Positions 17,274-31,778 of a stretch of DNA of 64,000 bases are shown one piece after another. The notes beneath the pieces were generated by a model. That model did no database searches and was not told the origin of the DNA. It saw only the letters and a list, made by a program, of their open reading frames with translations. The stretch covers positions 224,001-288,000 of the forward strand of contig CAWJBB010000041.1 in NCBI GenBank assembly GCA_963840855.1, in the 5' to 3' direction. Source of the stretch: an uncultured delta proteobacterium. GTDB taxonomy: Bacteria; Desulfobacterota; Binatia; UBA9968. Made by a program: the position numbers and the translations under genes. Each line of letters opens with the position of its first letter. The first letter of the stretch is position 1.

Positions 17274-18266
17274 CTAACTCAAGAGTAAGAACAGCTTGGT
17301 CGCAAGCCAGCCGATGGCGCCGCAGATCGGAAAAGTCAGGATCCAGGCGGCGACGATCTCGAGGGTTACGCCCCAGCGCACCGCGGATAAGCGCCGCGTT
17401 GCGCCCACGCCGATGATGGACGTGTTGATGGTGTGAGTCGTGCTCAAGGGAATGCCGAGGCGGGTGGCCAGCTCGATGGTCATGGCCGCGCTCGTCTCGG
17501 CGGCAAAGCCGTGCACGGGCTCCAGTTTGGTGAGGCGCAGCCCCATGGTCTTGACGATGCGCCAGCCGCCCACCGCGGTGCCAATGCCCATCGTGGCGGC
17601 GCACATTATGATGACCCAAATGGGCACGTTGAATTCCGGTATGATCCCACCCAAGAGGAGCGATAGCGTGAAAACGCCGATGAACTTCTGCCCATCGTTG
17701 GAGCCGTGGCTAAATGCCATGAATGCGGCGGAGACAATCTGTAATCGACCGAAAATCTTCCGCACCGTTCCGGGCCTGGTGTGGGCCAGGCTGCGGTAGA
17801 GCAAGCCCATCAGGAATAGGCCGCCAAAAAAACCCAAAAAGGTGGAGAACAACAGGCCGATGAGAACTTTGTTCCACCCGGTGGCAACCAGGCTCTCCGG
17901 TCCAGCCGTCGCAAGAGCCGCGCCGGTCAATCCGGCGATCAGGGCATGACTCTCGCTTGTCGGCATGCCGAAATACCACGCCAGAGTACTCCAGAAAATA
18001 ATCCCCACCATGGCTGCGCCCACCGTGGCCAGATTGATAATGTCGGGCCGAACTATGTCCTTGCCGATGGTGGCGGCCACAGCCGTGCCCGACATCGCGC
18101 CTAGCGCGTTTAGAATTGTCGCCATAATGACCGCCTGATAGGGCGACAGCACGCGCGTCGAGACCACCGTGGCGATGGCGTTGGGGGAGTCGGTCCAGCC
18201 GTTGACGAATTCAGCGGCCAGGATGAGTCCCAGGACAAAAATGAGCAGCCAGCTTGCGTCGAACAT
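17274..18266 (-). CDS. pit: PiT family inorganic phosphate transporter
   Basis: NGWTDSPNAIAT, HGSNDGQK and PLSTTH motifs. Confidence 0.95.
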   Translation of the reverse strand: MFDASWLLIFVLGLILAAEFVNGWTDSPNAIATVVSTRVLSPYQAVIMATILNALGAMSGTAVAATIGKDIVRPDIINLATVGAAMVGIIFWSTLAWYFGMPTSESHALIAGLTGAALATAGPESLVATGWNKVLIGLLFSTFLGFFGGLFLMGLLYRSLAHTRPGTVRKIFGRLQIVSAAFMAFSHGSNDGQKFIGVFTLSLLLGGIIPEFNVPIWVIIMCAATMGIGTAVGGWRIVKTMGLRLTKLEPVHGFAAETSAAMTIELATRLGIPLSTTHTINTSIIGVGATRRLSAVRWGVTLEIVAAWILTFPICGAIGWLATKLFLLLS

Positions 18267-18282
18267 TGGAGAAACAGAGCGA

Positions 18283-18897
18283 TCAGGAATTTTTCAGGCC
18301 GATGCTTTCGAGGATATTGGCGACATCTTCGCAACGATCGGTGGCGGATTCGAGGATCTCATATATGTCGAGCCACTTGATGACCTCCATCGGCGAGGTG
18401 CCATCGCCGAAAAGGTTGCCGATGGCTTTACGGTAGATGTCGTCCGCGGCATTCTCCAGGCGGTTGATCTCGATGCAATACTCGTCGATGTCGTCCAGGC
18501 GCGGCATATGCGACACGGCCTTGACCAGTTGTTCAGTAGCCGTAACGATGAGATCGGACAACTCCAGGGCTTCCGCAGTGGGCCGTTCGATTTTGAACAG
18601 GACCATGCGCGACGCACCCGCCTCGATGGCGTCCATCACGTTATCCAACGCCGTCGTCAGCGCGTGAATATCTTCCGCGTCGATGGGGGTTAAAAAGGTC
18701 TGGTTCAGGCTCCGGATCGTCCGATGGGTGAGGCGGTCGCCTTCATGTTCAAGGTCTTTGAGCTTTTTCCACGACTCTTGCGGATTGTCATAGCGCTCAA
18801 ACATTTCCTTTAGGGCTTTGGCGCCGGCGAGGGCGTTTTCCGCGGACTGTTTGAAAAGGTCAAAAAATTTTTCCCGATGGGGGGAGAAATTAAACAT
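18283..18897 (-). CDS. DUF47 / PhoU-like Pit accessory protein
   Basis: LEHEGD, FLTPIDAEDI and LENAAD; directly upstream of pit. Confidence 0.92.
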   Translation of the reverse strand: MFNFSPHREKFFDLFKQSAENALAGAKALKEMFERYDNPQESWKKLKDLEHEGDRLTHRTIRSLNQTFLTPIDAEDIHALTTALDNVMDAIEAGASRMVLFKIERPTAEALELSDLIVTATEQLVKAVSHMPRLDDIDEYCIEINRLENAADDIYRKAIGNLFGDGTSPMEVIKWLDIYEILESATDRCEDVANILESIGLKNS

Positions 18898-18960: not shown

Positions 18961-18993
18961 GCAATGTTAAGGAAATGTTACGGCAATGTTACG
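18961..18993 (-). promoter_or_regulatory. Pho-box-like array upstream of DUF47-pit
   Basis: Three 11-bp units GCAATGTTAAG/GAAATGTTACG/GCAATGTTACG; minus-strand core (G/T)TAACA. Confidence 0.8.
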
Positions 18994-21220
18994 AGCCCTC
19001 GTTGGCGAGGGCGATGAGCAACCGTTCGACCCGGGCGCGAATGGCGTCGCGGACGTCGCGGAAAACTTTGAGGATATGTTCCTCGTCGCCGTGCGCTAAC
19101 GCCGGGTCGGGCAAGGTCCAATGATCACGCCTCGCGTCTGCCGGAACAGCAGGGCAGGTCTCCGTCGCGTCGCCGCAAAGCGTGATGAGTAGATCGACGC
19201 TGTCAAGCGGGACTGCGTCTAATCCTTTTGAGCTTTGATTGGAAATATCGATGCCGGCTTCTTTCATCACCTCGACCGCCAGCGGATGGACCGGTTTTGG
19301 CTCCGTTCCCGCGCTGTAGATGCGGTGGCCGTTTACGGCCAGACGGCGCGCGAATCCTTCGGCCATCTGGCTGCGGCAAGAGTTGCCGGTGCAGAGGAAC
19401 AAAATATTTTTGTGATCTGTTTCTTGTTGGACCGCCGGCAATTGAACATGCACCGTGGTGCCCTTTTGCATGACGCTCTCGATCTTAAGTTTGCCCTGGT
19501 GCGCCTGAACGATGTGCTTGACGATGGCGAGACCTAAACCGGTTCCCCCCAGCTCGCGAGAGCGCGCCTTGTCGACGCGGTAAAATCTCTCGGTGAGCCT
19601 GGGAATATCATTTGCGGGGATGCCAGACCCGGTATCGCTCACCGATAATTGAACCATTAACGGCGCGCCAGGAGCGGCCGGCGTCTTCGCAGCTTTCAAC
19701 GCGACCTTGCCGCCAGAGGGCGTGTATTTGACCGCATTATCGATCAAATTGATGAACAGTTGCTGGAGCCGGTCGAAGTCGCCGAGCAGCGGCGGTAATC
19801 CGGGTTCTATTTGTTTGTTGAGTTCGAGATTTTTCGCATTTGCCTGGTTCCAGAAAACCTCCAGCACGCGCTGTGCTAGCTGGGCGATATCCACCGGTCG
19901 CCGCGCCAGCGGCAATTTTCCTGATTCCAAATCGGACAAGGTCAAAAGGTCTTCAGTCAGGCGGCTGAGCCGTTCGGTATTGCGCTCGATGACGCCGAGA
20001 AAATGGCGCATGTCGGCGGGATCCTCTGGCGGAGTTCGGAGCAGCGTTTCGACGTAACCGCGGATGGCGGTGAGTGGCGTGCGTAACTCGTGGGATACGT
20101 TGGCGACTAAGTCCGAACGCACCAACTCCAACCGCTTGATCTCGCTGATGTCGTGAAACACGAGGATCGAACCGCATGCCTCCTGGGCGCCGTCCTTTAG
20201 ACTTACGGCGTTGACGCTGACCCAGCGGCCCTCGTCCAGTTCGACTTCCTTGGAATAGCCCCGGTTGGCGAATTCGACTTCGAGCGCCTCACGCATGACC
20301 GCCAGCATTTCGGGGTGGCGGGAAAGCTCGGCGATGGAGGCGCCCTGGACGTCACGACCGGGTGGGACTTGAAACATCCGTTTCGCCTGCTCGTTGATGA
20401 CCAAAACCCGTCCTTTGGGGTCGAGCACCAGCACGCTCTCGATCATGCAGCGCAGGATCGAGTCCGCCTTTTCCTTTTCGGCGACGATTTGTTGAATGTG
20501 GTCCCGTAGCTTGCGACCCATCTCGTTAAGGTGCCGCTCCAGAAGATTGATTTCATCGCGTCCCGTGGTGGAGAAAAAATCATGGGGAATCGTGCCACCG
20601 GCGACCTGGCGCGAGAATTCCACCAGCCGCCCCAAGCGCCGGCCAAAATGGCGGAAAAAGACATAGGCAATCAGCAAGGCGAGGGCGGAGGCAGTGAGCA
20701 AACCCATTAACAAAGCGCGCCCCAGCGCGCTCGTCCGTTTTTCTATATCGGCCAGGGGAAAGGCAAGCCGGACGATTCTCTTTCGGCTTCCTTCGTTTTG
20801 AAGAATTGCGCGATAGAAGAGATCGTAGCCGACGGTGGTGCTGTGGCGTATCGCGGAGCCACTTCCCTTGGCCAGCGCATCGACGATTTCGGGCCGCCCG
20901 GCATGGTTCTCCATGGCTTCGGCAGGTTCGGCGGAATCGCCGAGCACTTGGCCGTCCAGGGCGATGATCGTTATGCGCGCGCCTAATTCGTCGGACAGGC
21001 TCCGGGTGAGGACATCTAGCGGGGCGCCCTCCAGTTCGAAGGGCAGAGCTTTGGCGAGCAGGCGCGATTCACGCTCCATGCGCGCCCCCAGCGAGGAGAT
21101 ATAAAGGTCTTTAACAAGCGCCTCTGAATAGAAGTAAAAGCTCGCGAACAGCAGCGCGATGATGGCGAGATAGCTAAGGAAGAACTTGAATATGAGGCTA
21201 CTGTTCCAGAGCCTTTTCAT
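18989..21220 (-). CDS. phoR: Phosphate sensor kinase PhoR fused to C-terminal ArsC/LMW-PTP domain
   Basis: TM-periplasmic-TM-HAMP-PAS, then HisKA (SHELRTPL) and HATPase (RFYRVDKARSR), continuing in frame into ILFLCTGNSCRSQMAE...LCGDATETCP...DP. Confidence 0.92.
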   Translation of the reverse strand: MKRLWNSSLIFKFFLSYLAIIALLFASFYFYSEALVKDLYISSLGARMERESRLLAKALPFELEGAPLDVLTRSLSDELGARITIIALDGQVLGDSAEPAEAMENHAGRPEIVDALAKGSGSAIRHSTTVGYDLFYRAILQNEGSRKRIVRLAFPLADIEKRTSALGRALLMGLLTASALALLIAYVFFRHFGRRLGRLVEFSRQVAGGTIPHDFFSTTGRDEINLLERHLNEMGRKLRDHIQQIVAEKEKADSILRCMIESVLVLDPKGRVLVINEQAKRMFQVPPGRDVQGASIAELSRHPEMLAVMREALEVEFANRGYSKEVELDEGRWVSVNAVSLKDGAQEACGSILVFHDISEIKRLELVRSDLVANVSHELRTPLTAIRGYVETLLRTPPEDPADMRHFLGVIERNTERLSRLTEDLLTLSDLESGKLPLARRPVDIAQLAQRVLEVFWNQANAKNLELNKQIEPGLPPLLGDFDRLQQLFINLIDNAVKYTPSGGKVALKAAKTPAAPGAPLMVQLSVSDTGSGIPANDIPRLTERFYRVDKARSRELGGTGLGLAIVKHIVQAHQGKLKIESVMQKGTTVHVQLPAVQQETDHKNILFLCTGNSCRSQMAEGFARRLAVNGHRIYSAGTEPKPVHPLAVEVMKEAGIDISNQSSKGLDAVPLDSVDLLITLCGDATETCPAVPADARRDHWTLPDPALAHGDEEHILKVFRDVRDAIRARVERLLIALANEGS

Positions 21221-21911
21221 CGAATTTGTAGCCCACCCCTCGGAGGGTTAAAATCCATTTGGGATGGCTGTCGTCCTTTTCGATCGCCTTTCGCAAGCGC
21301 CGGATATGAACGTCGACGGTCCGGGGCGTCACGTAGGTCTCGCCACCCCAAACCCGGTCGAGCAGTTGGTCGCGGCTCAGCACCCGGTTGGGATTTTGCG
21401 CCAGAAAGCGCAATAGTTCAAACTCCTTGAGCGTTAGCTTGATGGTTTTTCCTCGGGCGAAAACCTCGTAGGTCGTGAAATCGATGCGCAGCGGCCCTTT
21501 TTCGTACGACGGCGGGCTATCCGCGGCGGCAGCGCTTTCTGACCTCCTGAGTATCGCGCGCACCCGCGCCACCATTTCACGCGGGCTGAAGGGTTTCGCC
21601 AGGTAGTCGTCTGCGCCCATCTCCAAGCCGATGACTTTGTCGGCCTCGCCAGCCTTGGCGGTGAGCATCAGGATCGGCAGGTGCGCCGTGTCTTGGCGGT
21701 CGCGCAAGAGCTTGCAAAGCTCCATTCCGGACATACCGGGAAGCATGAGATCGAGAATTATCAGATTCGGTCTGGCGCGCTGGAGTAGTTTTAGAGCTTG
21801 CTCGCTATCTTCGGCCTCGATCACTTTGTAGCGCTCTTGGACGAGATTGTATTGGAGGAGTTTGCGAATATCGGGCTCGTCTTCGACGACGAGAATCGTT
21901 GGATTGGCCAT
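21198..21911 (-). CDS. phoB: Phosphate regulon response regulator
   Basis: REC domain plus OmpR wHTH (RTVDVHIRRLR); lies between phoU and phoR. Confidence 0.93.
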   Translation of the reverse strand: MANPTILVVEDEPDIRKLLQYNLVQERYKVIEAEDSEQALKLLQRARPNLIILDLMLPGMSGMELCKLLRDRQDTAHLPILMLTAKAGEADKVIGLEMGADDYLAKPFSPREMVARVRAILRRSESAAAADSPPSYEKGPLRIDFTTYEVFARGKTIKLTLKEFELLRFLAQNPNRVLSRDQLLDRVWGGETYVTPRTVDVHIRRLRKAIEKDDSHPKWILTLRGVGYKFDEKALEQ

Positions 21912-21920
21912 ATGTGAAAA

Positions 21921-22613
21921 CTAAACGGTGGGCGGAAGCTCCTTGAGATGGCGAATGCTTTTACCCTTGACCATGAAAATGACCATTTCGGCGATATTCG
22001 TCGCGTGATCGGCGATGCGCTCGAGGTACTTCGAGATCGAGCTGATCTTGATCGCCCGGTTGATGGTGTGCGGGTCGTCGATCATGAAGGTCACCACTTC
22101 GCGAAAGATCTGACTGTTCAATTGATCGACCTCTTCGTCGTCCTTGCAGACTTTGAGCGCCAGATCGGTGTCCTCGCGCACGAAAGCATCGAGGCTCTCG
22201 CGTATCATCCGCTGCGCTACGCGCGCCATGCGCGGGATGTCGATGTAGGGTTTCAACTGCGGTTCCTGGTTCAGCTCCAGGGCGCGCTCGCAGATATTCA
22301 CCGCCATATCGCCGATACGCTCGAGATCGGTCGTAATCTTGAGTCCGGTGGTGATGAATCGGAGATCCCGTCCGGCCGGTTGATGCAAAGCCAGAAGGCG
22401 GACACATATATCGTCAATATCGACGTCGAGACGGTTCACTTCGTGATCCCGCTCGATAATCAGTTCGGCCAGCTTCGAATCCCGCTCGACCAGAGACTTG
22501 ATCGACTTCTGAATCTGGTCTTCGACCATCCCGCCCATGTAGAGGATCTCTTCCCGAAGCTTCTTAAGTTCTTCTTCGTATCTTTTATCGGTATGTTCCA
22601 TTGACGTGGACAT
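21921..22613 (-). CDS. phoU: Phosphate signalling protein PhoU
   Basis: QPAGRDLR, DLERIGD and LERIADHATNIAE. Confidence 0.97.
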   Translation of the reverse strand: MSTSMEHTDKRYEEELKKLREEILYMGGMVEDQIQKSIKSLVERDSKLAELIIERDHEVNRLDVDIDDICVRLLALHQPAGRDLRFITTGLKITTDLERIGDMAVNICERALELNQEPQLKPYIDIPRMARVAQRMIRESLDAFVREDTDLALKVCKDDEEVDQLNSQIFREVVTFMIDDPHTINRAIKISSISKYLERIADHATNIAEMVIFMVKGKSIRHLKELPPTV

Positions 22614-22624
22614 GAGGTTTCTCC

Positions 22625-23503
22625 TTAACCGAAACGACCGGTGATGTAGTCTTCGGTTTGGCGCTTCTCCGGCGCGGTGAAAAGGGTTCCGGTCTCTCCG
22701 AATTCTATCAATTCGCCGAGATAGAAAAAAGCCGTATAGTCCGAGACCCGGGCGGCCTGCTGCATGTTATGGGTCACGATGACGATGGTGAAAGTGTTCT
22801 TGAGTTCATGGATCAATTCTTCGATCTTGGCGGTGGAAATCGGGTCGAGGGCGGAACAGGGCTCGTCCATGAGCAATACTTCGGGTTCAACGGCAAGAGC
22901 CCGGGCAATACAAAGGCGCTGCTGCTGCCCGCCGGACAAATCAACCGCGCTCTTGTGCAGGTTGTCTTTGACCTCGTCCCATATGGCGGCGCGGCGCAAG
23001 TTCTTTTCGACGACTTCGTCGAGGTAGCTTCGGTTATTCACGCCGACGATGCGCAATCCATAAACGATGTTCTCGTAGATACTCTTGGGGAAGGGGTTCC
23101 ATTTCTGAAAAATCATGCCGACGCGGCGGCGCAGATTGATGACATCCATGGACGGGTCGTAGATGTTTTTGCCGTCAAGGTTGATACTGCCGGTAACGCG
23201 GGTATTGAGCACGAGATCGTTCATGCGATTCAGGCAGCGCAGCAGGGTGGTCTTACCGCAACCGGAGGGACCGATGAAGGCGGTCGATTTCTTCTCGCCA
23301 ATCTCCAAATTGATGGATTTTAGCGCATGCTTCTCGCCATAGTAAAAATCGACGTTTTCAACGCTGAAAATATTCCTAACCGGCTCGCCGACTTTGGTTT
23401 TGATGACCGACGTGTCCATGGGTTTAATAGAAGGCCGGCTTGCAATGACGTCTGCCGCTGATTCGTGTACGCTCATCTTACCTCCATTAGGTATATTTGT
23501 CAT
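22625..23503 (-). CDS. pstB: Phosphate ABC transporter ATPase
   Basis: [31 protein letters not shown]. Confidence 0.97.
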
Positions 23504-23518
23504 TGGAGATCCTTGGCG

Positions 23519-24443
23519 CTACCATTTGATGCGTTTTCGGAAACGATAGCGGAAATAGATCGCGATACCGTTCATCACCAAGGTCATAACCATCAGCACC
23601 AAGCCCGTGGCCGCCGCGTTGAGGTGGAATTCGGCTTGGGGCCGCGAAACCCAGTTAAACATTTGAATTGGCATAACTGAAAATGGCGACCACAGCCATT
23701 CAAAAGAGATAAAAGGAAACTCGGCTTTGATCGGAGCGTCGGGCAGGAATGCGATAAAAGTAAGGGCGCCGATGGTGATCAGCGGCGCGGTTTCCCCGAT
23801 GGCGCGCGAGAAGCCCGATAATGACGCCGGTCAAGATGCCGCCCATCGAATAGGGCAACACATGATCGCTGGTGGTTTGCCATTTGGTCGCGCCGAGGGC
23901 GTAAGCTGCTTCTCTCATGCTGCCGGGAACGGCGCGGATGGATTCGCGGGTGGCGACGATGACGATCGGCAAAATCAGCAGCGCCAAGCGTGAGCCCCGC
24001 TGAGAGCACGCTCTGTCCGAATCTGAACTGATAAACAAACAATCCCAGTGCCATCAAGCCGTAAACAATGGACGGCACGCCCGCCAGGTTGGCGATATTG
24101 ATTTCGATGATCGCGGTGAACCAGTTTTTCGGAGCGTATTCCTCCAGGTAAACGCCGGCGCCGACGCCGATTGGAATAGCCGCCAGGGCGGTCACGATCA
24201 TGACGAGAATCGTGCCCACCCAGGAGGAGAGAATGCCCGCTTGGCCGGCAAAACGGGACGGAAACGACGTAAAGAAATGCGGCTGCAGACGCGCCAGCCC
24301 GTCGATGGCGAGGTCAGAAAGCAAGGTGGCCAAGGTGAGCATACCGATGAGGGTCGAGATCAAGCCGACACGGCAAATAGCTTGTCCCGATTCTTATTGC
24401 CGGCGACGCTTTTTTCAATGTCGGATGGAGACGGCTTCTGCAT
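23519..24443 (-). CDS. pstA: Phosphate ABC permease PstA (several frameshifts)
   Basis: [11 protein letters not shown] and [13 protein letters not shown] segments in different frames. Confidence 0.88.
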
Positions 24444-24444
24444 A

Positions 24445-25401
24445 TCAGTAAATCTCCCTGAAGCGCTTTCGAAGCAAGTAACCGCCGATGTTGAAAATCA
24501 GAGTCATGCACATCAAGGTCAAACCCGCGGCAAAAATACTTTGATAGGCGATGCTGCCGTGGGGCAAATCGCCCAAGCTCACTTGCACGATATAGGCAGT
24601 GATCGTCGCGGCGCCTTCCATCGGATTCAGCGTCAGATTGGGCTGGGTGCCGGCAGCGAGGGCAACCACCATGGTTTCGCCGACCGCCCGGGAGAACCCC
24701 AGCACGTAGGCGGAGGCGATGCCGGAAAATGCCGCGGGCACCAGCACGCGAAGCGCCGTCTGCAGCCGCGTCGCGCCCATGGCATAGGAGCCTTCGCGAA
24801 TATGCACCGGGACGGCCTTCATCGCGTCTTCGCTGAGCGAGCTGACATAGGGATGATCATGATGCCGATGACGATGCCGGCGCTCAGCATGTTGAAGCCC
24901 GGCAGATTCGGGCATACAGACTCTGAAGCAGAGGCGTGATGCAACAGCAGCGCAAAATAGCCGAAAACAACCGTCGGCACAGCGCTCAACAGCTCTAGGA
25001 TCGGTTTCAATACTTCACGAACCGTGGTGTTGGCGTATTCACTCAAATAGATGGCAATGGTAGTTCCCAGCGGCAACGCCACCAGCAGAGCGATCGCCCG
25101 AGGTCACAAGGGTGCCAGTCACCAACGGCAAGATGCCATAGCGCGGGTTCTCGAACAGAACCGTCCACTGCGTGTCGGTGAGAAAATCAATGATCGATAC
25201 GTTCTCAAAAAAATGCCAGGACTCAGAGATCAAGAACCCAGACGATGCCCAGCGGTAATCGCGACTGAGAAAACGAGCACAGAGGAACATGCAACACTCG
25301 ATGACTCGCTCGCGAATCTTTTGGAGAGTTAGCCCGGAGCCACGGGCTTTGACTTGGCTTTGTAAAGCGACATAAGCAGCGTCGGCTTGATTTGTCTTCA
25401 C
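24445..25401 (-). CDS. pstC: Phosphate ABC permease PstC (several frameshifts)
   Basis: [12 protein letters not shown] and SRAVGETM segments in different frames. Confidence 0.88.
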
Positions 25402-25501
25402 ATCGTCTTTTCCTCTCTGACCTGATGTGGATCGGAGCGCTCGGCGGAAACGCGAGACGGGGCGCCGGAGTGCGCCCCGTCGCGTCGATCATTGACACCA
25501 G

Positions 25502-26493
25502 CTAGAGTTTCGGCTCTCGCTTCAGAAGTCTTCGATGGTGACTCCGACTTCCGCGCTTGCCGCCGAATGCCGTTCCGACTTTGCCGCTTTTTCACGTGAC
25601 TCGCGCCCAAGCGTATAGGCTTTATCTGCGGTAGCGGCACGTATTTGACTTCCCTGACCAGCTTCGGAGCGTGCTTGAGATAGTACTCCACAAACTCTTT
25701 AACCTCTGGCTTTGCCAAGGACTTCTTGCTCACATAAATATAGATCGGCCGGGAAAGCGGTTGATAAGTGCCATCGAGCACAGTCTTTTCCGACGGGCCG
25801 ACGGGACCTTTGCCGTTATCGATCGCGACGGCTTTGAGCTTACCCTTGTTCTCAGCATAGTAGGCGAAGCCGAAAAATCCCAAGGCATTGTGGTCGTTCG
25901 CAACGCCTTGAACCAGGACGTTATCATCCTCGCTCGCCGTAAAATCGCCGCGGCTGGATTTCGCTTTCCCAGCGATGGCTTCGGTGAAGTAGTCAAAGGT
26001 TCCGGAGTCGGCTCCGGCGCCGAAGAGCTTCAACGGGCGTCGGGCCAACTGGCTCGAACTTGATTCCATTTAGTGACTTTCCCCTGCGCGGCGGGCTCCC
26101 ACATTTTCTTGAGTTCAGCCACGGTCAGAGATTGAGGACCACTCGTTTTTGGGGTTGACGATTACGGTGAGGGCATCGAAAGCGACCGGCAGTTCGATGT
26201 ATTCAATGCCGGCGCCTTTGCACGCCTCCATCTCCTGTTTCAAGATGGGCCGAGATGCGTTGCTGATATCGGTTTCGCCGCGGCAGAATTTCTTAAAGCC
26301 GCCGCCCGTACCCGCGATACCCACGGTTACCTTGATCTTGCCCTTCTTCGCTTTCTGGAACTCTTCGGCAACGGCCTCGGTGACCGGAAACACCGTGCTC
26401 GAACCGTCGATTTGAATCAATTTGCGCCTGGGCAGCTCGCTCGACAAACACGAAAAGACCGAGCAGGCTGAGAATTAACAATATTTTCTTCAT
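25502..26493 (-). CDS. pstS: Phosphate-binding protein PstS (several frameshifts)
   Basis: Signal peptide [11 protein letters not shown]; [33 protein letters not shown]. Confidence 0.9.
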
Positions 26494-26525
26494 AGTTTCC
26501 TCCTGTTATGAGCTTTAGCGATCTA

Positions 26526-26757
26526 TCATTACGATCTGGTTACAACCATGTTAAACAGCTATTAATTCCCGCATGGGCTTCTGCAACGTGATCTCGGCTT
26601 ATGCTTTCGGGAGGCCATCAGGGTTCGTATTTGCTTGATTTGACGAGAAACTTAGAGGACTTGGGTAAAGCCTGCGTAAAGTCAATGTAAAAAATATGTT
26701 AAGGGCGATGCTGGGCTTGGCTTCGAAGGTTGCTGGTCTGTAACACAAACTTAACAA
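26526..26757. promoter_or_regulatory. Three Pho-box-like arrays in the divergent pstS / tmk-like promoter region
   Basis: 11-bp periodicity: TTA at 26529/26540/26551/26562; GT(A/T)AA at 26665/26676/26687/26698; plus-strand GTAACA 26740 and TTAACA 26751. Confidence 0.75.
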
Positions 26758-26840: not shown

Positions 26841-27575
26841 ATGGCCGGCGGCATGAAAATGTACGGCAAGCATCGCTTCCCGGGAAGACTTTTTATCGTC
26901 GAGGGCATCGACGGGTCAGGCAAGAGCACGCAGCTGATGCTGCTGCAAAAATGGCTCGAGTCCGAGGGCTATGTCGTTTACTTCAGCGAATGGAATTCCT
27001 CCCCCCTCGTCCGCGACGTCACCAAGCGCGGCAAGAAAAAGCAGATGCTCACGCCGATGACTTTCAGTCTGATCCACGCCACCGATTTTGCCGACCGCAC
27101 CGAACACGATATCATTCCGCCCCTCAAGGCGGGCGCGGTGGTCTTGGCGGACCGCTATATTTATACCGCCTTCGCCCGCGACGTCGTGCGTGGGGTCAGT
27201 CCCAGTTGGGTGAGAGGGCTGTACGATTTCGCGGTTAAGCCCACCGTGTCGTTCTATTTCCGCGCGCCCTTAGACGTGGCGATGAAGCGGATTCTCGGTG
27301 GGCGGGACGCGATCAAGTATTACGAAGCCGGAATGGATCTCGGACTGAGCGACGACATCGAAGAGTGTTTCGAGCTTTTTCAAGGTAAGATCATCGAGGA
27401 ATATGAAAAAATGGTCGATGAGTTCGGCCTAGTGCCCATCGACGCGACGCGTTCCATTGAAGAGCAGCAAGCCGAAGTGAGACGGATCGTGATGCAGGCG
27501 CTGGAAGGTACCAAGAAAACGAGGATTCGCAAATGGCTCGATTTGGCTTCTTTGGCGAAGGACTCCCGGGCATAG
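26841..27575 (+). CDS. Thymidylate-kinase-fold protein 1 (intact P-loop)
   Basis: VEGIDGSGKST and LADRY; atypical YYEAGMDLG insertion. Confidence 0.88.
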   Translation: MAGGMKMYGKHRFPGRLFIVEGIDGSGKSTQLMLLQKWLESEGYVVYFSEWNSSPLVRDVTKRGKKKQMLTPMTFSLIHATDFADRTEHDIIPPLKAGAVVLADRYIYTAFARDVVRGVSPSWVRGLYDFAVKPTVSFYFRAPLDVAMKRILGGRDAIKYYEAGMDLGLSDDIEECFELFQGKIIEEYEKMVDEFGLVPIDATRSIEEQQAEVRRIVMQALEGTKKTRIRKWLDLASLAKDSRA

Positions 27576-28234
27576 ACCTCGAAGAGCTGAAAGGAAAGCT
27601 CATCGTCCTCGAGGGAACCGACGGGGTGGGGCGGTCGACGCATATCGGCTTATTAAAACAGTGGCTGGAGAACAACGGCCACGCCGTGTTGGACACCGGC
27701 ATGACCCGCTCCCCTTTGGCCGGCAAGCGGCTCAAACAGGCGAAGGAAGGCCACACTCTGGGCGGCATCACGATGAGCCTGTTTTACGCCACCGATTTCG
27801 CCGACCGTCTGGAAAACGAAATCATCCCCGCGTTGCGGGCGGGTTTCATCGTGCTTACGGACCGTTATATTTATTCCCTGATGGCCCGCGCCGTCGTGCG
27901 CGGGGCCGACCCGGAGTGGTTGCGCGAAGTCTACGGTTTCGCGCTCAAGCCGGATGCGATTTTTTATTTGCGCGTCAATATCGACGATCTGGTGACCAGG
28001 GTTTTGCAAAGCACGGGGTTCAATTACTGGGAGTCCGGCATGGATCTCCGTATGGGCGAGGACTTGTACGAGAGCTTCGTGCGTTACCAGCGCTGGCTGC
28101 TCGGCGAGTTCGACAAGATGGTGGAAACCTACGGCTTCGACATCGTCGACGCTTCGGGCACCGTCGAGGAGGTGTTTCCGCGCCTGCGCGACCGTATCCA
28201 GAGGATCGTCGAACGCAACGGCCATGCGCAATGA
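27533..28234 (+). CDS. Thymidylate-kinase-fold protein 2 (P-loop Lys to Arg)
   Basis: LEGTDGVGRST, LTDRY, YWESGMDL; paralog of the upstream gene, overlapping it by 43 bp. Confidence 0.88.
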   Translation: MARFGFFGEGLPGIDLEELKGKLIVLEGTDGVGRSTHIGLLKQWLENNGHAVLDTGMTRSPLAGKRLKQAKEGHTLGGITMSLFYATDFADRLENEIIPALRAGFIVLTDRYIYSLMARAVVRGADPEWLREVYGFALKPDAIFYLRVNIDDLVTRVLQSTGFNYWESGMDLRMGEDLYESFVRYQRWLLGEFDKMVETYGFDIVDASGTVEEVFPRLRDRIQRIVERNGHAQ

Positions 28235-28237
28235 TTC

Positions 28238-29206
28238 TTAGTCTTGCCCCACCGCTTCCACCGGATTTTCATCCCCCGCGATTGTGAATTCGGTTTCACC
28301 GAACGCGCGCGAGGTTTTTTCCGCGTGTTTCACCAGGCCGTCGATGCTGGCATTGGCGCGGCGCTGTTCACGCTCCATTTCCACGAGCAACGCCCGCGCC
28401 AGGCCAGGATGGGTGGCTAAGAAATCTTTTCGGCTCAGAAACTCCGCGCAGGTGTCCAAGAGAACCTGGCGGTCGTGCCACGAGCCTAATTGATCCTGCA
28501 GCAAGCGCAAGGATTTCACCCGCGCTTTTGCTGGCCCGTCGCCTAACTCGGCGAGAAGCTCGACCCGGTAGCGCAGCCGCTTGCCGGCGATGCGCAGCGC
28601 GTGCACTTCCTTCGGCTCTGGCCGCGCTTTGGCCGTGGCGATGGCATCCCGCCAATCGGCCAGCGCCCCGGCCACGCTCTTTTTCAGGCTGTCCTCCAGC
28701 GCTTCAGCGCCGCTGTCAATTAGGACGCGCGCGCGGTCGGCGAAGTTCACGAGGTCGAAGCCGCGGAGCTTTTCCCGGCTGCGCTCGACGGCACGGGCGC
28801 GCCGGTTCCCGAGCTGGGCTCGCAGCTGGTCCCAGGCATCCCGCACCACGGGATTACTGGCAGCAGCGATTTTTTCTTGCACCAGTTCGGTCATGACATC
28901 CAGATTGCGCGGCCGACCCAGGATCTTGCGGATACTGCGCAACGCGCGCATGAGCTTGCGCGGCTTATTTTTTTTCGTGGATTGCGACGCGAGCATGCTG
29001 AGAATCTGCTGCAAGCGCCGGCTCCATACCCGCACATCGTGAATCATTTTAGCATCGTCGGTCACAATGACACGGGGCATGAGAGCGGCGAATTTTTCCA
29101 GCCGTTTGCGGCCCAACGCGGATAATTTCCCGTTCGTCGCGGTTGGCGGCGGGTCCGCTGAGTTTGCTTCGTCTGTTGTTGAGTTCGGGGAAGTCGCGGC
29201 ATTCAT
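28238..29206 (-). CDS. CHAD domain (polyphosphate-binding) protein
   Basis: IHDVRVWSRRL, LG..RNLDV, HALRIAGKRLRY and LQDQLG.WHD repeats. Confidence 0.92.
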   Translation of the reverse strand: MNAATSPNSTTDEANSADPPPTATNGKLSALGRKRLEKFAALMPRVIVTDDAKMIHDVRVWSRRLQQILSMLASQSTKKNKPRKLMRALRSIRKILGRPRNLDVMTELVQEKIAAASNPVVRDAWDQLRAQLGNRRARAVERSREKLRGFDLVNFADRARVLIDSGAEALEDSLKKSVAGALADWRDAIATAKARPEPKEVHALRIAGKRLRYRVELLAELGDGPAKARVKSLRLLQDQLGSWHDRQVLLDTCAEFLSRKDFLATHPGLARALLVEMEREQRRANASIDGLVKHAEKTSRAFGETEFTIAGDENPVEAVGQD

Positions 29207-29211
29207 AAAGG

Positions 29212-29730
29212 TCACGATTTGGCGCCGCGTGTGCCCAGGAAACGGAGCTGTTTCGGCGCCAGCAAGGCGCGGAGCGTCCCAGGACTGCGGGGTGGCAAGG
29301 AATCGATCTCGATGTGGCAAAGACCGCCCTTTTTGAGAGCGATCTCGAGGGCGACCGTTTTCTTGCCCGTGACAAGGAAAGCCGCGGTGCCGCTTAGCAA
29401 CGGCTCATGTCCCACAAGTAGCAGGTGCTTGCAGTGTTGGTAGTCGCTCAGGCTGGCGAGCAATTCCTCCACCGAGCAGTTCGGTTGGAGCCCCTCCACC
29501 ACCGTCAATTGGGATTCTAGACCCAGCGCCTCGGCGACGATGTCGGCGGTCTGGCGCGCCCGCGCTAGGGGACTCGTCAAAATGGCGTCGAAGTCGAGGC
29601 CGAGACGGCGCAAGCCGCGCACCGCCTTGCGCATTCTTTTAGTACCTTTTGCCGTGAGCGGCCGCTCGCCGTCCGGTGCCGTTTCTTCGGCACTTACCGC
29701 GATGCCGTGACGCAAGAGATATATGTTCAT
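29212..29730 (-). CDS. sixA: Phosphohistidine phosphatase SixA
   Basis: LLRHG, RPLT..G, SPLARARQTA, LVGHEP. Confidence 0.92.
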   Translation of the reverse strand: MNIYLLRHGIAVSAEETAPDGERPLTAKGTKRMRKAVRGLRRLGLDFDAILTSPLARARQTADIVAEALGLESQLTVVEGLQPNCSVEELLASLSDYQHCKHLLLVGHEPLLSGTAAFLVTGKKTVALEIALKKGGLCHIEIDSLPPRSPGTLRALLAPKQLRFLGTRGAKS

Positions 29731-29772
29731 GGTTCGTCTTACCCGGCGCGGTGGTGGCACCCCAGACGCGGA

Positions 29773-30213
29773 TCAGGTGAGGTTGCGCCAGTAGTCCATA
29801 AACAAAGCGAACACTCTCTTGTTAATTTCATCACGTTCTTCGCGCAGGGTCGATAGGCCGGCCAAATCATTGTTTTGTGCCGCCCTGGAACTCGCAATGG
29901 CCCATTGTTTCACCTTGGCTCTGGCTGGCAGGGTGGCGCATTTCTTGTCAGCGCCGGCGAAGCTTACGATCAGGTCGATTTCATCTAACGGCACCTGGTC
30001 AACGCTTTTGGAATTTTGCGTCGACATGTTGATGCCGAGCTCTTGCATGACTTTGCGCACGGGCACGGGAATGTTGCCGGGGGTGACGCCGGCGCTGAAG
30101 ACGCGCACTTTGGGTGGCCCCAAGTGCTTCGCCACCGCTTCAGCCATCTGGCTCAAACGGGCGTTGTCCTGGTCCAGAAATAAGACGTTTCTCTGGCGAA
30201 TCTCGCGGCGCAT
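29773..30213 (-). CDS. ArsC/LMW-PTP-fold protein with degenerate active site
   Basis: NVLFLDQDNARLSQMAEA..VFSAG; the CX5R nucleophile Cys and the DP motif are absent. Confidence 0.8.
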   Translation of the reverse strand: MRREIRQRNVLFLDQDNARLSQMAEAVAKHLGPPKVRVFSAGVTPGNIPVPVRKVMQELGINMSTQNSKSVDQVPLDEIDLIVSFAGADKKCATLPARAKVKQWAIASSRAAQNNDLAGLSTLREERDEINKRVFALFMDYWRNLT

Positions 30214-30230
30214 GGAATACCTCCTGTGAA

Positions 30231-31778
30231 TTACCGAGTTGCGCTGTTTTTGGACTTTTCAAAAGCAACGTCGATATTAAAAACTTCCTGCATCAAGCTA
30301 GCCTTTTTCGCCGCCCGTTGGAAGTGTTCTTTGAGATTGGCCGCGGCGGAGGCGGCGATGATCAGCTCCTTCGAGTTTTTCTGCGCGCAGCTTACCGCTT
30401 TAACCGTTTGGTCATGGGTGAAATCCAGAGAGTCGGCGACGCGCAGAATAGCGCTCAGCTTGCGTACGATCTGTTGTTGATCGGGATGCAACTGGCTGAA
30501 GGCCAGGTGTTTTTGGCTCGGATGCGCTTTGCGGTGATAGCGCGCGACATTGGCGATGAGATCGAGATCAGTTCTGCTGAAGGAATTCATCGCCGAGCTT
30601 TTGATCAGGTAGTATGAATGCTTGTGGTGCTTGGGGTAGGCGACGAATAAGCCGATGTCGTGCAGGGTGGCCGCCGCATGCAGGACACTCGCGAATTTTT
30701 CCGGCAACTGGTGCAGGTCGTGGAGTTGATAGAAGAGATTTAACGCGAGCTGGCTCACGTGCTCGGCGTGAGCGCGGTCATAGAGGTATTTCTGGCACAC
30801 CTGTTCGAGGGACTCAGCCCGCTCCGCCCCGGCGTGCCAGGGTTCGGCGGCCGAATAATGGCGCTGCAACAAGTCCACCATCAGGCCGTCGCGCAGACCG
30901 CGTCGGCTAACGAAGAGGTAATCCAGTCCGGCTGCCGTCATGATTTCATGGAGCACCAATCCACCGGCAACGATGATGTCGGCGCGCCTGGGATCGCCGC
31001 TGATCATCGACGCGCGTTCAGAGGCGGGCAAGCCTTTCAATAATTCAAGCAAAGCTTTAAGCCGCGACCGGCGCAGGATGGCAAGTGAATCGGGTTTCGT
31101 GTCGCCGCCGACCAGGGTATCGGTTTCGGCCAGAGCGGTAACCGTTCCGCCGCTGCCAAACGCCATGGTGAATTTTTCTTTTTCAATGCGGCGCACCACC
31201 GGCTTGAGTTTTTCCTGAACCAGCTCGCGTAAATTCTTGATCTCGCGGTTGCGCGGCGGGTCGGTGGCGAGAAAGGCTTCGGTCAAGCGCACCGCCCCGA
31301 GGGGCAGGCTGAACAGGCAAAAGAGCGTACTGGTATTGGCCACGGAAAACTCGACGCTGCCGCCGCCAATGTCGAGGAAGAGCCCCAGGGGCAAATGAAA
31401 ACGCAACCCGCTCATGATGCCGAGACTGATGAGACGGGCTTCGTCTTCTTCCGAAATCACGTCCAGTGGGATGCCGGACTTGCGCGCGCGGCGAACGAAA
31501 GCTTTGCCGTCGCGCGCTTCACGCAGGGCGCTGGTGCCTACGGCGCGAACGGATTTCACGCGGTAGCGGTCGGCCAACGCGCGAAAATCACCGAGAACTT
31601 TTAGTGCGGCATCGGCGGTGCGGGGATCGAGTTTCCCAGTGCGGAAAACATCATGGCCCAATCGCACGGGCTGGCGTTCCTGCTCCAGAACTCGATATTG
31701 CTTCGGATGGTCGACGGCGGCAATCTGCAGACGCATCGCGTTACTGCCGACGTCAACGACGGCGAAATGGTCCGGCAT
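30231..31778 (-). CDS. ppx: Exopolyphosphatase Ppx/GppA with HD domain
   Basis: VDVGSN, TSALREA, DIGGGS, GLRDG, LHDIG..HHKHS. Confidence 0.95.
   Translation of the reverse strand: MPDHFAVVDVGSNAMRLQIAAVDHPKQYRVLEQERQPVRLGHDVFRTGKLDPRTADAALKVLGDFRALADRYRVKSVRAVGTSALREARDGKAFVRRARKSGIPLDVISEEDEARLISLGIMSGLRFHLPLGLFLDIGGGSVEFSVANTSTLFCLFSLPLGAVRLTEAFLATDPPRNREIKNLRELVQEKLKPVVRRIEKEKFTMAFGSGGTVTALAETDTLVGGDTKPDSLAILRRSRLKALLELLKGLPASERASMISGDPRRADIIVAGGLVLHEIMTAAGLDYLFVSRRGLRDGLMVDLLQRHYSAAEPWHAGAERAESLEQVCQKYLYDRAHAEHVSQLALNLFYQLHDLHQLPEKFASVLHAAATLHDIGLFVAYPKHHKHSYYLIKSSAMNSFSRTDLDLIANVARYHRKAHPSQKHLAFSQLHPDQQQIVRKLSAILRVADSLDFTHDQTVKAVSCAQKNSKELIIAASAAANLKEHFQRAAKKASLMQEVFNIDVAFEKSKNSATR

Follow-up and report, generated by a model that had tools for sequence, protein, structure and literature searches.

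A tandem pair of thymidylate-kinase-fold genes in a Binatia genome as a probable bacterial member of the PPK3 polyphosphate kinases

What do two overlapping genes of thymidylate kinase (Tmk) fold do beside genes for the degradation and binding of polyphosphate (polyP)? The question is raised by a 64,000-nucleotide stretch of DNA from an uncultured Binatia bacterium, here called the window (G000:C41:224001-288000), which belongs to a metagenome-assembled genome (MAG) of 7.1 Mb in 93 contigs, 94% complete and 8% contaminated. An initial annotation of these letters had proposed that the two genes encode a new polyP kinase or polyP-dependent nucleotide kinase, composed of a catalytic and a regulatory subunit, that takes the place of the polyP kinases PPK1 and PPK2. 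Our analysis indicates that the pair is, in all likelihood, a bacterial PPK3, orthologous to the heteromeric polyP kinase of Sulfolobus (Hofmann et al., J Biol Chem 2026, PMC12995831; preprint 10.1101/2024.08.28.610084, 2024). The proposed two-subunit design on a Tmk fold fits that published enzyme. The novelty does not stand: the family is already known, having been posted in 2024 and published in 2026, and the authors' text places bacterial Tmk paralogs encoded beside ppx, sixA, CHAD or pstS in the PPK3 clade (PMC12995831). The two genes are the following.

26841..27575, plus strand: cPPK3 (P0001), putative catalytic Tmk-fold subunit, 244 aa, assigned from Pfam, the match to structure 2plr, the tree and conserved c-specific basic residues

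27533..28234, plus strand: rPPK3 (P0002), putative regulatory Tmk-fold subunit, 233 aa, assigned from its place in the r clade (99 SH-aLRT) and its GR[ST] motif

The open reading frames (ORFs) overlap by 43 nt, and the products share 42% identity across 208 aa (E 8e-59). The motifs that had first drawn attention to the pair are all present in the translations: GSGKST (residues 25-30), ATDFADR (80-86) and KYYEAGMDL (159-167) in P0001, and GVGRST (31-36), ATDFADR (86-92) and NYWESGMDL (164-172) in P0002. Both proteins match the Pfam Thymidylate_kin domain (PF02223) at about 72 bits, and both fall short of the dTMP-kinase cut-off of NCBIfam TIGR00041 (76.2 and 75.8 bits against 83.25). The Pfam scan gave P0001 one further, weak NTPase match and found no match to PF03976 (PPK2) for either protein. 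The rPPK3 start is backed by an alignment of relatives that runs from residue 1. Contigs from four runs lie over the window, all of them contigs of relatives 90-95% alike, and the parts they leave uncovered are uninformative; contigs of the RNA-library run X18 cover 27538-28300, which is no proof of transcription.

According to the text of the PPK3 paper, PPK3 is a heteromeric, Tmk-derived polyP kinase in which S. acidocaldarius Saci_2019 (cPPK3) is a reversible enzyme favouring polyP + ADP -> ATP, Saci_2020 (rPPK3) is inactive itself and stimulates Saci_2019, the complex is a2b2, and the operon includes sixA, ppx and a CHAD gene (PMC12995831). The same text treats STK_15430 of Sulfurisphaera tokodaii (PDB 2plr/5h70) as a cPPK3 homologue. 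P0001 matches this chain at 209.4 bits (E 4e-61), the next PDB matches being true Tmks at 53.3 bits or less, and P0002 matches it at 145.4 bits.

Tree placement agrees with this homology. We built a quick IQ-TREE phylogeny of 76 rows, with support given only by the Shimodaira-Hasegawa-like approximate likelihood ratio test (SH-aLRT), from the window pair, 22 named loci, 2 same-phylum genomes, 9 Thermoproteota genomes and 8 canonical Tmks. The archaeal pairs came from 151 sampled genomes of the phylum of a Nitrososphaerota holder of the pair, nine of which matched at E<=1e-25; ppx-c-r-CHAD operons are present in five of these nine, one of which (L133) has a c subunit that matches 2plr at 357 bits. 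Sulfolobaceae-like operons served as stand-ins for Saci_2019 and Saci_2020. The 68 c and r rows separate from the eight canonical Tmks at 100 SH-aLRT. All 34 r rows, including five Sulfolobaceae-like r subunits, form one clade at 99 SH-aLRT with P0002 inside it, and P0001 is placed among the 34 c rows, a group with a support of 71.

The same evidence bears on the simplest alternative, that the two proteins are divergent kinases of dTMP or another nucleoside monophosphate with no role in polyP metabolism. The Tmk fold and the Pfam match are what this alternative predicts, and STK_15430 was earlier reported as an unusual thymidylate kinase, as cited in the preprint (10.1101/2024.08.28.610084). 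We nevertheless consider it most improbable. A separate canonical tmk, which the initial annotation had asked to be looked for, is present in the genome (C51:3457-4044; PF02223 171.9 bits, TIGR00041 186.7 bits), whereas both members of the pair stay under the cut-off for that function. In the alignment with 2plr, 'FARD' stands where Tmks have 'AYQG', and the linkage to ppx, CHAD and sixA extends across phyla. In the text of the published work, Saci_2019 made polyP, the dTMP kinase role went to Saci_0893, and Saci_2020 was neither a dTMP kinase nor a polyP kinase (PMC12995831).

If the pair is a PPK3, do its two subunits divide the work as in Sulfolobus? We compared 81 c and 78 r sequences, window pair included. 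P0001 has Walker-A GSGKST, DRY, the lid residues Arg155 and Lys159 and a basic loop (R58/K62/R63/K65/K66). The Walker-A Lys (K28) is present in 81/81 c sequences, the DRX Arg (R105) and lid R155 in 100% of them and K159 in 96%; the loop residues R58/K62/R63/K66 are found in 85-90% of c sequences against 4-38% of r sequences. The lid and loop basic residues are absent from the r type, and their restriction to c agrees with the paper, which describes the residues of the cleft as conserved in c and not in r (PMC12995831). In P0002 the Walker-A Lys is replaced by Arg (GVGRST), DRY is present (LTDRY), the lid Arg and Lys are missing, and an N-terminal arm, FFGxGLP, is conserved. The Lys to Arg change, as GR[ST], occurs in 78/78 r-type sequences.

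The lesion that the PPK3 papers describe is a different one. In their text, the DRX arginine is absent or replaced in rPPK3s, which explains the inactivity (PMC12995831; 10.1101/2024.08.28.610084). In our set the DR of DRX is retained in 77/78 r-type sequences, P0002 included, and its loss is a trait of the characterised subunit, not one that defines the clade. The Nitrososphaerota r subunit we examined has GR[ST] and DRY, as in bacteria. The five Sulfolobaceae-like r subunits have DGY instead of the DRX Arg, and their branch within the r clade has a length of 2.43. Four of the five retain the Walker-A Lys; the fifth (L131, G201, 2118-2750) combines the Walker-A Lys to Arg change with the loss of the DRX Arg. 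Because DRX loss is limited to these five long-branch sequences, the assayed r subunit looks like a derived form. The common r subunit thus appears to be impaired otherwise than the assayed one, a point that goes beyond the main text of the PPK3 papers.

These patterns also bear on a second alternative, in which both subunits are active, the Lys to Arg subunit being a working kinase or a nucleotide sensor and the mechanism unlike that of SaPPK3, the S. acidocaldarius enzyme. P0002 does retain the DRX Arg, the ATDFADR Arg, R119, R123 and R156; an r-specific Arg59 is 99% conserved over the 78 r sequences; and r subunits without the DRX Arg are confined to the very long branch. On the other hand, the Walker-A Lys is replaced in every r-type sequence, and the lid Arg and Lys and the c-type basic loop are missing. 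In P-loop enzymes a Walker-A Lys to Arg change usually abolishes phosphoryl transfer, which we count against this alternative; we regard it as quite unlikely. The preferred reading, a catalytic c with an impaired r, would extend inactivity to the common r form, P0002 included, on the strength of the Lys to Arg change and the missing lid residues.

Do the two proteins form a complex? Modelling supports a 1:1 c-r heteromer. Folded with alignments, the pair scored 0.67, against 0.00 for the best of three controls, with at least 94% contact agreement between folding runs and a partner pLDDT (predicted local distance difference test) of at least 80. The binding mark was reached by 58/80 solved complexes and 2/110 mismatched pairs, counts that are only a rough guide here because custom alignments were used. 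The predicted interface joins c 71-88 and 117-130 with r 8-13, 76-95 and 126-136, that is, the helix region bearing ATDFADR and the neighbouring helices. This is presumably the region through which Tmks dimerise; if the c-r contact resembles a Tmk dimer already solved, the pass may reflect structures that the folding model already knew. Fused forms were also found. The read-derived protein P0007 (427 aa) is a c-r fusion with GKS followed by GRS, and P0127 (460 aa, Alicyclobacillaceae) has two Tmk-like halves, the second without a recognisable Walker A. Separately, six long multidomain proteins of 1030-2575 aa (P0175, P0183, P0198, P0205, P0206 and P0214) contain a cPPK3-like domain.

How common is the pair, and in what company is it found? 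Among metagenome proteins, cPPK3 has more than 8000 close relatives (all those scored), of which the best 120 are 76-96% identical and carry the label 'dTMP kinase', several of them as 'Candidatus Binatia bacterium'; at 50% identity and E<=1e-30 there are 390 clusters. The nearest named record among the matches listed is a Candidatus Binatia MAG contig at 97% identity. In a survey of one genome per species, at least 598 stretches fitted the peptide pattern and at least 440 were confirmed as loci, of which the best 80 were analysed. These 80 span at least 13 phyla: Binatota, Thermodesulfobacteriota (as labelled), Acidobacteriota, Chloroflexota, Planctomycetota, Nitrospirota, Armatimonadota, Bacteroidota, Actinomycetota, Verrucomicrobiota, Gemmatimonadota, Eiseniibacteriota, Bdellovibrionota and Nitrososphaerota. 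In their main text the PPK3 papers speak of 'a few bacteria' (PMC12995831; 10.1101/2024.08.28.610084); judged by homology, the family is widespread in bacteria.

Both subunits are encoded in 77/80 loci, and the other three end at a contig edge right after c. The order is c then r in 72/80; in two loci the stop-to-stop r ORF begins before c, and in three, all from Planctomycetota (L077, L078 and L104), r lies about 2.6 kb upstream of c. Within 7 kb of the pair we counted Ppx in 51 loci, CHAD in 37, SixA in 35, PstB in 14, PPK2 in 4 and PPK1 in 3, which bears out the expected linkage to polyP genes across taxa. Closer to home, the window's arrangement (pstS divergent from c-r, and c-r convergent with ppx, a low-molecular-weight phosphatase (LMWP)-like gene, sixA and CHAD) recurs in the 10 family relatives that have the pair, some of them cut by contig ends; in one relative (L035, G132) matches to LMWP, Ppx and pstS are absent near the pair. 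The same partner genes stand near the pair in two distant genomes of the phylum. The pair occurs in 2/120 other genomes of a phylum-wide sample, which fits a patchy distribution; the direction of transfer is not readable from this patchiness, and we infer no donor.

Has the pair replaced PPK1 and PPK2, so that it is the organism's only polyP kinase? The claim that no ppk1 or ppk2 lies in the window is correct, and it extends further: the 94%-complete genome gave no domain match to PF02503 (PPK1) or PF03976, and tblastn of the genome with relatives' PPK2 gave none. According to section 8 of the PPK3 paper, moreover, most PPK3 holders encode neither PPK1 nor PPK2 (PMC12995831). Against replacement, tblastn with a congener's PPK1 matches the very end of contig C38 (21,602 bp). 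There the last 800 nt share 87-91% identity with the congener's ppk1 over its upstream region and its first nine codons. The stretch (C38:20817-21602) is syntenic with the locus at which the congener's ppk1 is intact, and the similarity breaks off 21 nt short of the end of the contig. The remainder of ppk1 is absent from the whole assembly. Since the end of C38 carries the start of ppk1, a ppk1 locus exists and has been cut by assembly or disrupted.

Relatives point the same way. Congeners have PPK1 in 3/4 and PPK2 in 2/4 genomes. We compared the window genome with 24 other genomes of its family, 10 of which carry the pair; kin are not independent and the samples are small. Among the 11 PPK3 holders, window genome included, PPK2 is matched in eight, in one case by a fragment with stops, and PPK1 in three. 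Among the 14 family genomes without PPK3, one (G123) has both PPK1 and PPK2 and the other 13 show no PPK match whatever. The anti-correlation with ppk that the initial annotation had proposed as a check therefore has the opposite sign within this family. G132 has PPK2 encoded immediately upstream of the pair and on its strand (contig C128, 8091-11084), a physical link between the two kinase families. Five PPK3 holders from five other phyla, hand-picked by phylum, have PPK2 in four cases and PPK1 in one, and three Nitrososphaerota holders have PPK2 in one. In two sister families of the same order PPK3 is found in 0/16 genomes, and one of these families has PPK1 and PPK2 in 10/11. Although the samples are small and non-independent, the sign is nonetheless one of co-occurrence with PPK and not of replacement. 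We consider it unlikely that the pair is the organism's sole polyP kinase; this lineage probably has several polyP kinases, among them PPK3, which would not stand in for PPK1 or PPK2. As a side observation, genomes of the organism's family seem to have either the whole set of polyP kinases or none of it.

What surrounds the pair in the window? It diverges from pstS and converges on a minus-strand operon whose end lies 3 bases past the P0002 stop and which reads, in order of transcription, ppx, LMWPc/ArsC-like, sixA and CHAD, as first described. The neighbouring genes are listed below.

28238..29320, minus strand: CHAD-domain protein (PF05235 117.6 bits), beside the pair in relatives; the longest ORF starts at TTG, and an ATG at 29206, 5 nt past the sixA stop, is the likelier start

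29212..29760, minus strand: SixA-type phosphohistidine phosphatase (TIGR00249 102.6 bits against a cut-off of 74.5), likelier start ATG 29730

29773..30213, minus strand: degenerate LMW-phosphatase/ArsC-fold protein (PF01451 38.6 bits)

30231..31778, minus strand: Ppx/GppA exopolyphosphatase with HD-type domain III (PF02541 190.6 bits, PF21447 96.9 bits)

23503..26505, minus strand: pstS-pstC-pstA, divergent from the pair and broken, with many single-base indels and an in-frame TGA at 26115-26117

22625-23503, minus strand: pstB, intact

21921-22613, minus strand: phoU, intact

21198-21911, minus strand: PhoB-like response regulator (best NCBIfam match PhoB, 270 bits against a cut-off of 296)

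18989-21220, minus strand: PhoR/PnpS-like histidine kinase, 743 aa, with a fused C-terminal LMWPc/ArsC domain

17274-18897, beyond phoBR: operon of PhoU_div (DUF47) and a PHO4/Pit transporter

The LMWP-like protein of the cluster probably does not act as a conventional phosphatase or arsenate reductase. The arginine of CX5R is lost from every orthologue encoded in the clusters of the family relatives and of L048-L050 (LFLC-EDNAC-L-S), and in the window protein the cysteine is also replaced, by Asp (LFLDQDNARLS). A third degenerate LMWP paralog lies elsewhere in the genome (C50:97110-97529). By contrast with the cluster protein, the LMWPc/ArsC domain of the PhoR-like kinase (residues ~606-735) has an intact CX5R; an output or sensor module of this sort is unusual in a phosphate-regulon kinase. 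The window pstS, identified as PBP_like_2, is in pieces, whereas relatives carry whole pstS, pstC and pstA of 338, 335 and 318 aa. The indels in pstSCA measure 1-2 nt, and an alignment of the window with contigs from three soil studies (90-95% alike) shows 1-nt indels at 12 listed places, all between 24368 and 26131; several contig pieces across the PPK3 genes are gap-free. The broken pstSCA is either real decay or a local assembly fault.

Might the pair be under phosphate control? The initial annotation had credited it with its own Pho-box, and an 11-bp-spaced direct repeat does lie upstream of cPPK3. It is one of several such arrays.

26741..26757, plus strand: Pho-box-like pair GTAACA-N5-TTAACA, 84-100 nt upstream of the cPPK3 start, kept in L040, L047 and L038

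26676..26703, no strand assigned: three 11-bp-spaced units in the pstS/PPK3 intergenic region, reading TTAACA-N5-TTTACA-N5-TTTACG on the minus strand, kept in L040, L047 and L038

26541..26561, minus strand: pstS-side pair TTAACA-N5-GTAACC, conserved in L040, L047 and L038

31823..31850, minus strand: three-unit array TTCACA-N5-TTAATA-N5-GTAACA, 45-72 nt upstream of the ppx start

18965-18992, minus strand: three 11-bp-spaced units GTAACA-N5-GTAACA-N5-TTAACA, 68-95 nt upstream of the PhoU_div-Pit operon

The three relatives L040, L047 and L038 have the divergent pstS in common. The ppx array stands in register, with its GTAACA unit, in L040, L039, L038 and L042, whose Ppx proteins are 62-89% identical to that of the window. 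The array at 18965-18992 consists of two further, overlapping matches of the site-derived pattern, of which 0.21 would be expected in the whole window, and 4/9 genome matches of KTWACA-N5-KTWACA fall in the window's island. The ppk1 remnant on C38 is preceded by GTAACG-N5-TTCATC-N5-GTAACA. Alignment of the intergenic region with the distant relatives L035-L037, L039 and L045 was uninformative, L035-L037 appearing with a different upstream gene. By their position and conservation the arrays may well be Pho boxes; their presence on both convergent operons goes beyond the main text of the PPK3 papers.

Elsewhere in the genome (C2:80740-82157), a palindromic GTAACA-N5-GTAACA site, formed by two of the nine matches, stands 14 nt ahead of the earliest possible start codon, a TTG, of a secreted Phytase-like (PF13449) protein, a candidate Pho-regulon member. 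Three strict-pattern sites (C46:78737, C46:148384 and C82:40867) adjoin ORFs without annotation.

Several points weigh against reading the pair as a Pho-controlled PPK3 with an inactive r subunit. Its activity is projected from a c-subunit identity of ~55-60% to an archaeal homologue. The published reason for r inactivity does not carry over to P0002, whose retained DRX Arg leaves its inactivity not established, and nucleotide binding may persist in a protein with the Walker-A Lys to Arg change. The fold covered a 1:1 pair, as against the a2b2 complex with an r-dimer core given in the text of the paper (PMC12995831). The genome is a MAG with the incompleteness and contamination stated above. 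The genome-wide count of KTWACA-N5-KTWACA is not enriched (9 matches, where seven other spacings give 0-10 and eight permuted units give 0-5); it is therefore no evidence, and we used only the locations of the sites, so that the case for Pho control comes from site location and conservation. An E. coli-like pattern, CTGTAAC-N4-CTGTAAC (at least 12/14), was dropped, having given 17 genome sites against 8-80 for 12 permuted half-sites.

How, then, might the module work? We propose that P0001 is the catalytic subunit and would move the terminal phosphate reversibly between ATP/ADP and a polyP chain held in its basic cleft, possibly with the same preference for ATP formation as the Sulfolobus enzyme. 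P0002 would be a paralog of impaired catalysis whose binding to P0001 increases the activity of the latter, in the manner of Saci_2020 with Saci_2019, and the overlap of the two genes would go with translational coupling. The tail-to-tail partner operon would supply polyP hydrolysis (Ppx), polyP binding (CHAD), SixA and the degenerate LMWP-fold protein. For the arrays of [GT]T[AT]ACA-like units with 11-bp spacing, the most likely binding protein is the PhoB-like regulator, whose gene lies 5 kb away, in which case the module would be switched by phosphate supply. A bolder version is that the r type of bacteria and Nitrososphaerota is a nucleotide-binding sensor that sets the direction of c by ATP/ADP, and that the Binatia enzyme is a Pho-controlled third polyP kinase beside PPK1 and PPK2; we offer it tentatively and rate it as rather doubtful.

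Both genes of the pair are labelled 'dTMP kinase' in databases, so that polyP metabolism is likely to be under-annotated in abundant soil lineages. The survey qualifies the main text of the PPK3 papers in three respects: the breadth of the family in bacteria, the type of lesion in r, and the presence of PPK2 beside PPK3. A PPK3 from a mesophilic bacterium would also lend itself readily to biochemistry and to uses in ATP regeneration.

How does the pair compare with known systems? It resembles SaPPK3 in its two adjacent paralogs of Tmk fold, of which one has the full catalytic motifs with a basic cleft and the other is apparently impaired, in its partner genes ppx, sixA and CHAD, in a canonical tmk located elsewhere, and in belonging to the same tree clade. 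It differs in that the window genes form two convergent operons beside pst/phoU/phoBR, as against one operon in Sulfolobus; in its host, a mesophilic soil bacterium whose relatives also have PPK1 or PPK2; and in its r subunit, which has the DRX Arg and the ATDFADR Arg, the Walker-A Lys to Arg change and the N-terminal FFGxGLP arm. The closest solved structure to P0001 is STK_15430 (PDB 2plr, 4nzy, 4rzx and 5h70), deposited as a 'probable thymidylate kinase'. The alignment spans residues 15-222, long gaps are absent, and the blocks GIDGSGKS, TFSLIHATDF.DR and DRYIYTA.ARD are common to both; STK_15430, however, is archaeal and from a thermophile, and its lid reads K-IKPQEAG where P0001 has AIKYYEAG.

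With canonical dTMP kinases (PF02223/TIGR00041) the pair shares the fold, the P-loop, DRX and the lid layout, but it scores ~76 bits against TIGR00041, far below the genome's true Tmk, and falls in a separate clade; according to the text of the PPK3 paper, the dTMP-contact residues are lost in PPK3 (PMC12995831). Finally, the two-domain class II PPK2 of P. aeruginosa (PA3455), as that text describes it, likewise combines an active P-loop kinase module with an inactive paralogous module and acts on polyP and nucleotide substrates (PMC12995831). It belongs to another P-loop kinase family, and its modules are fused, whereas those of the window are encoded by separate genes.

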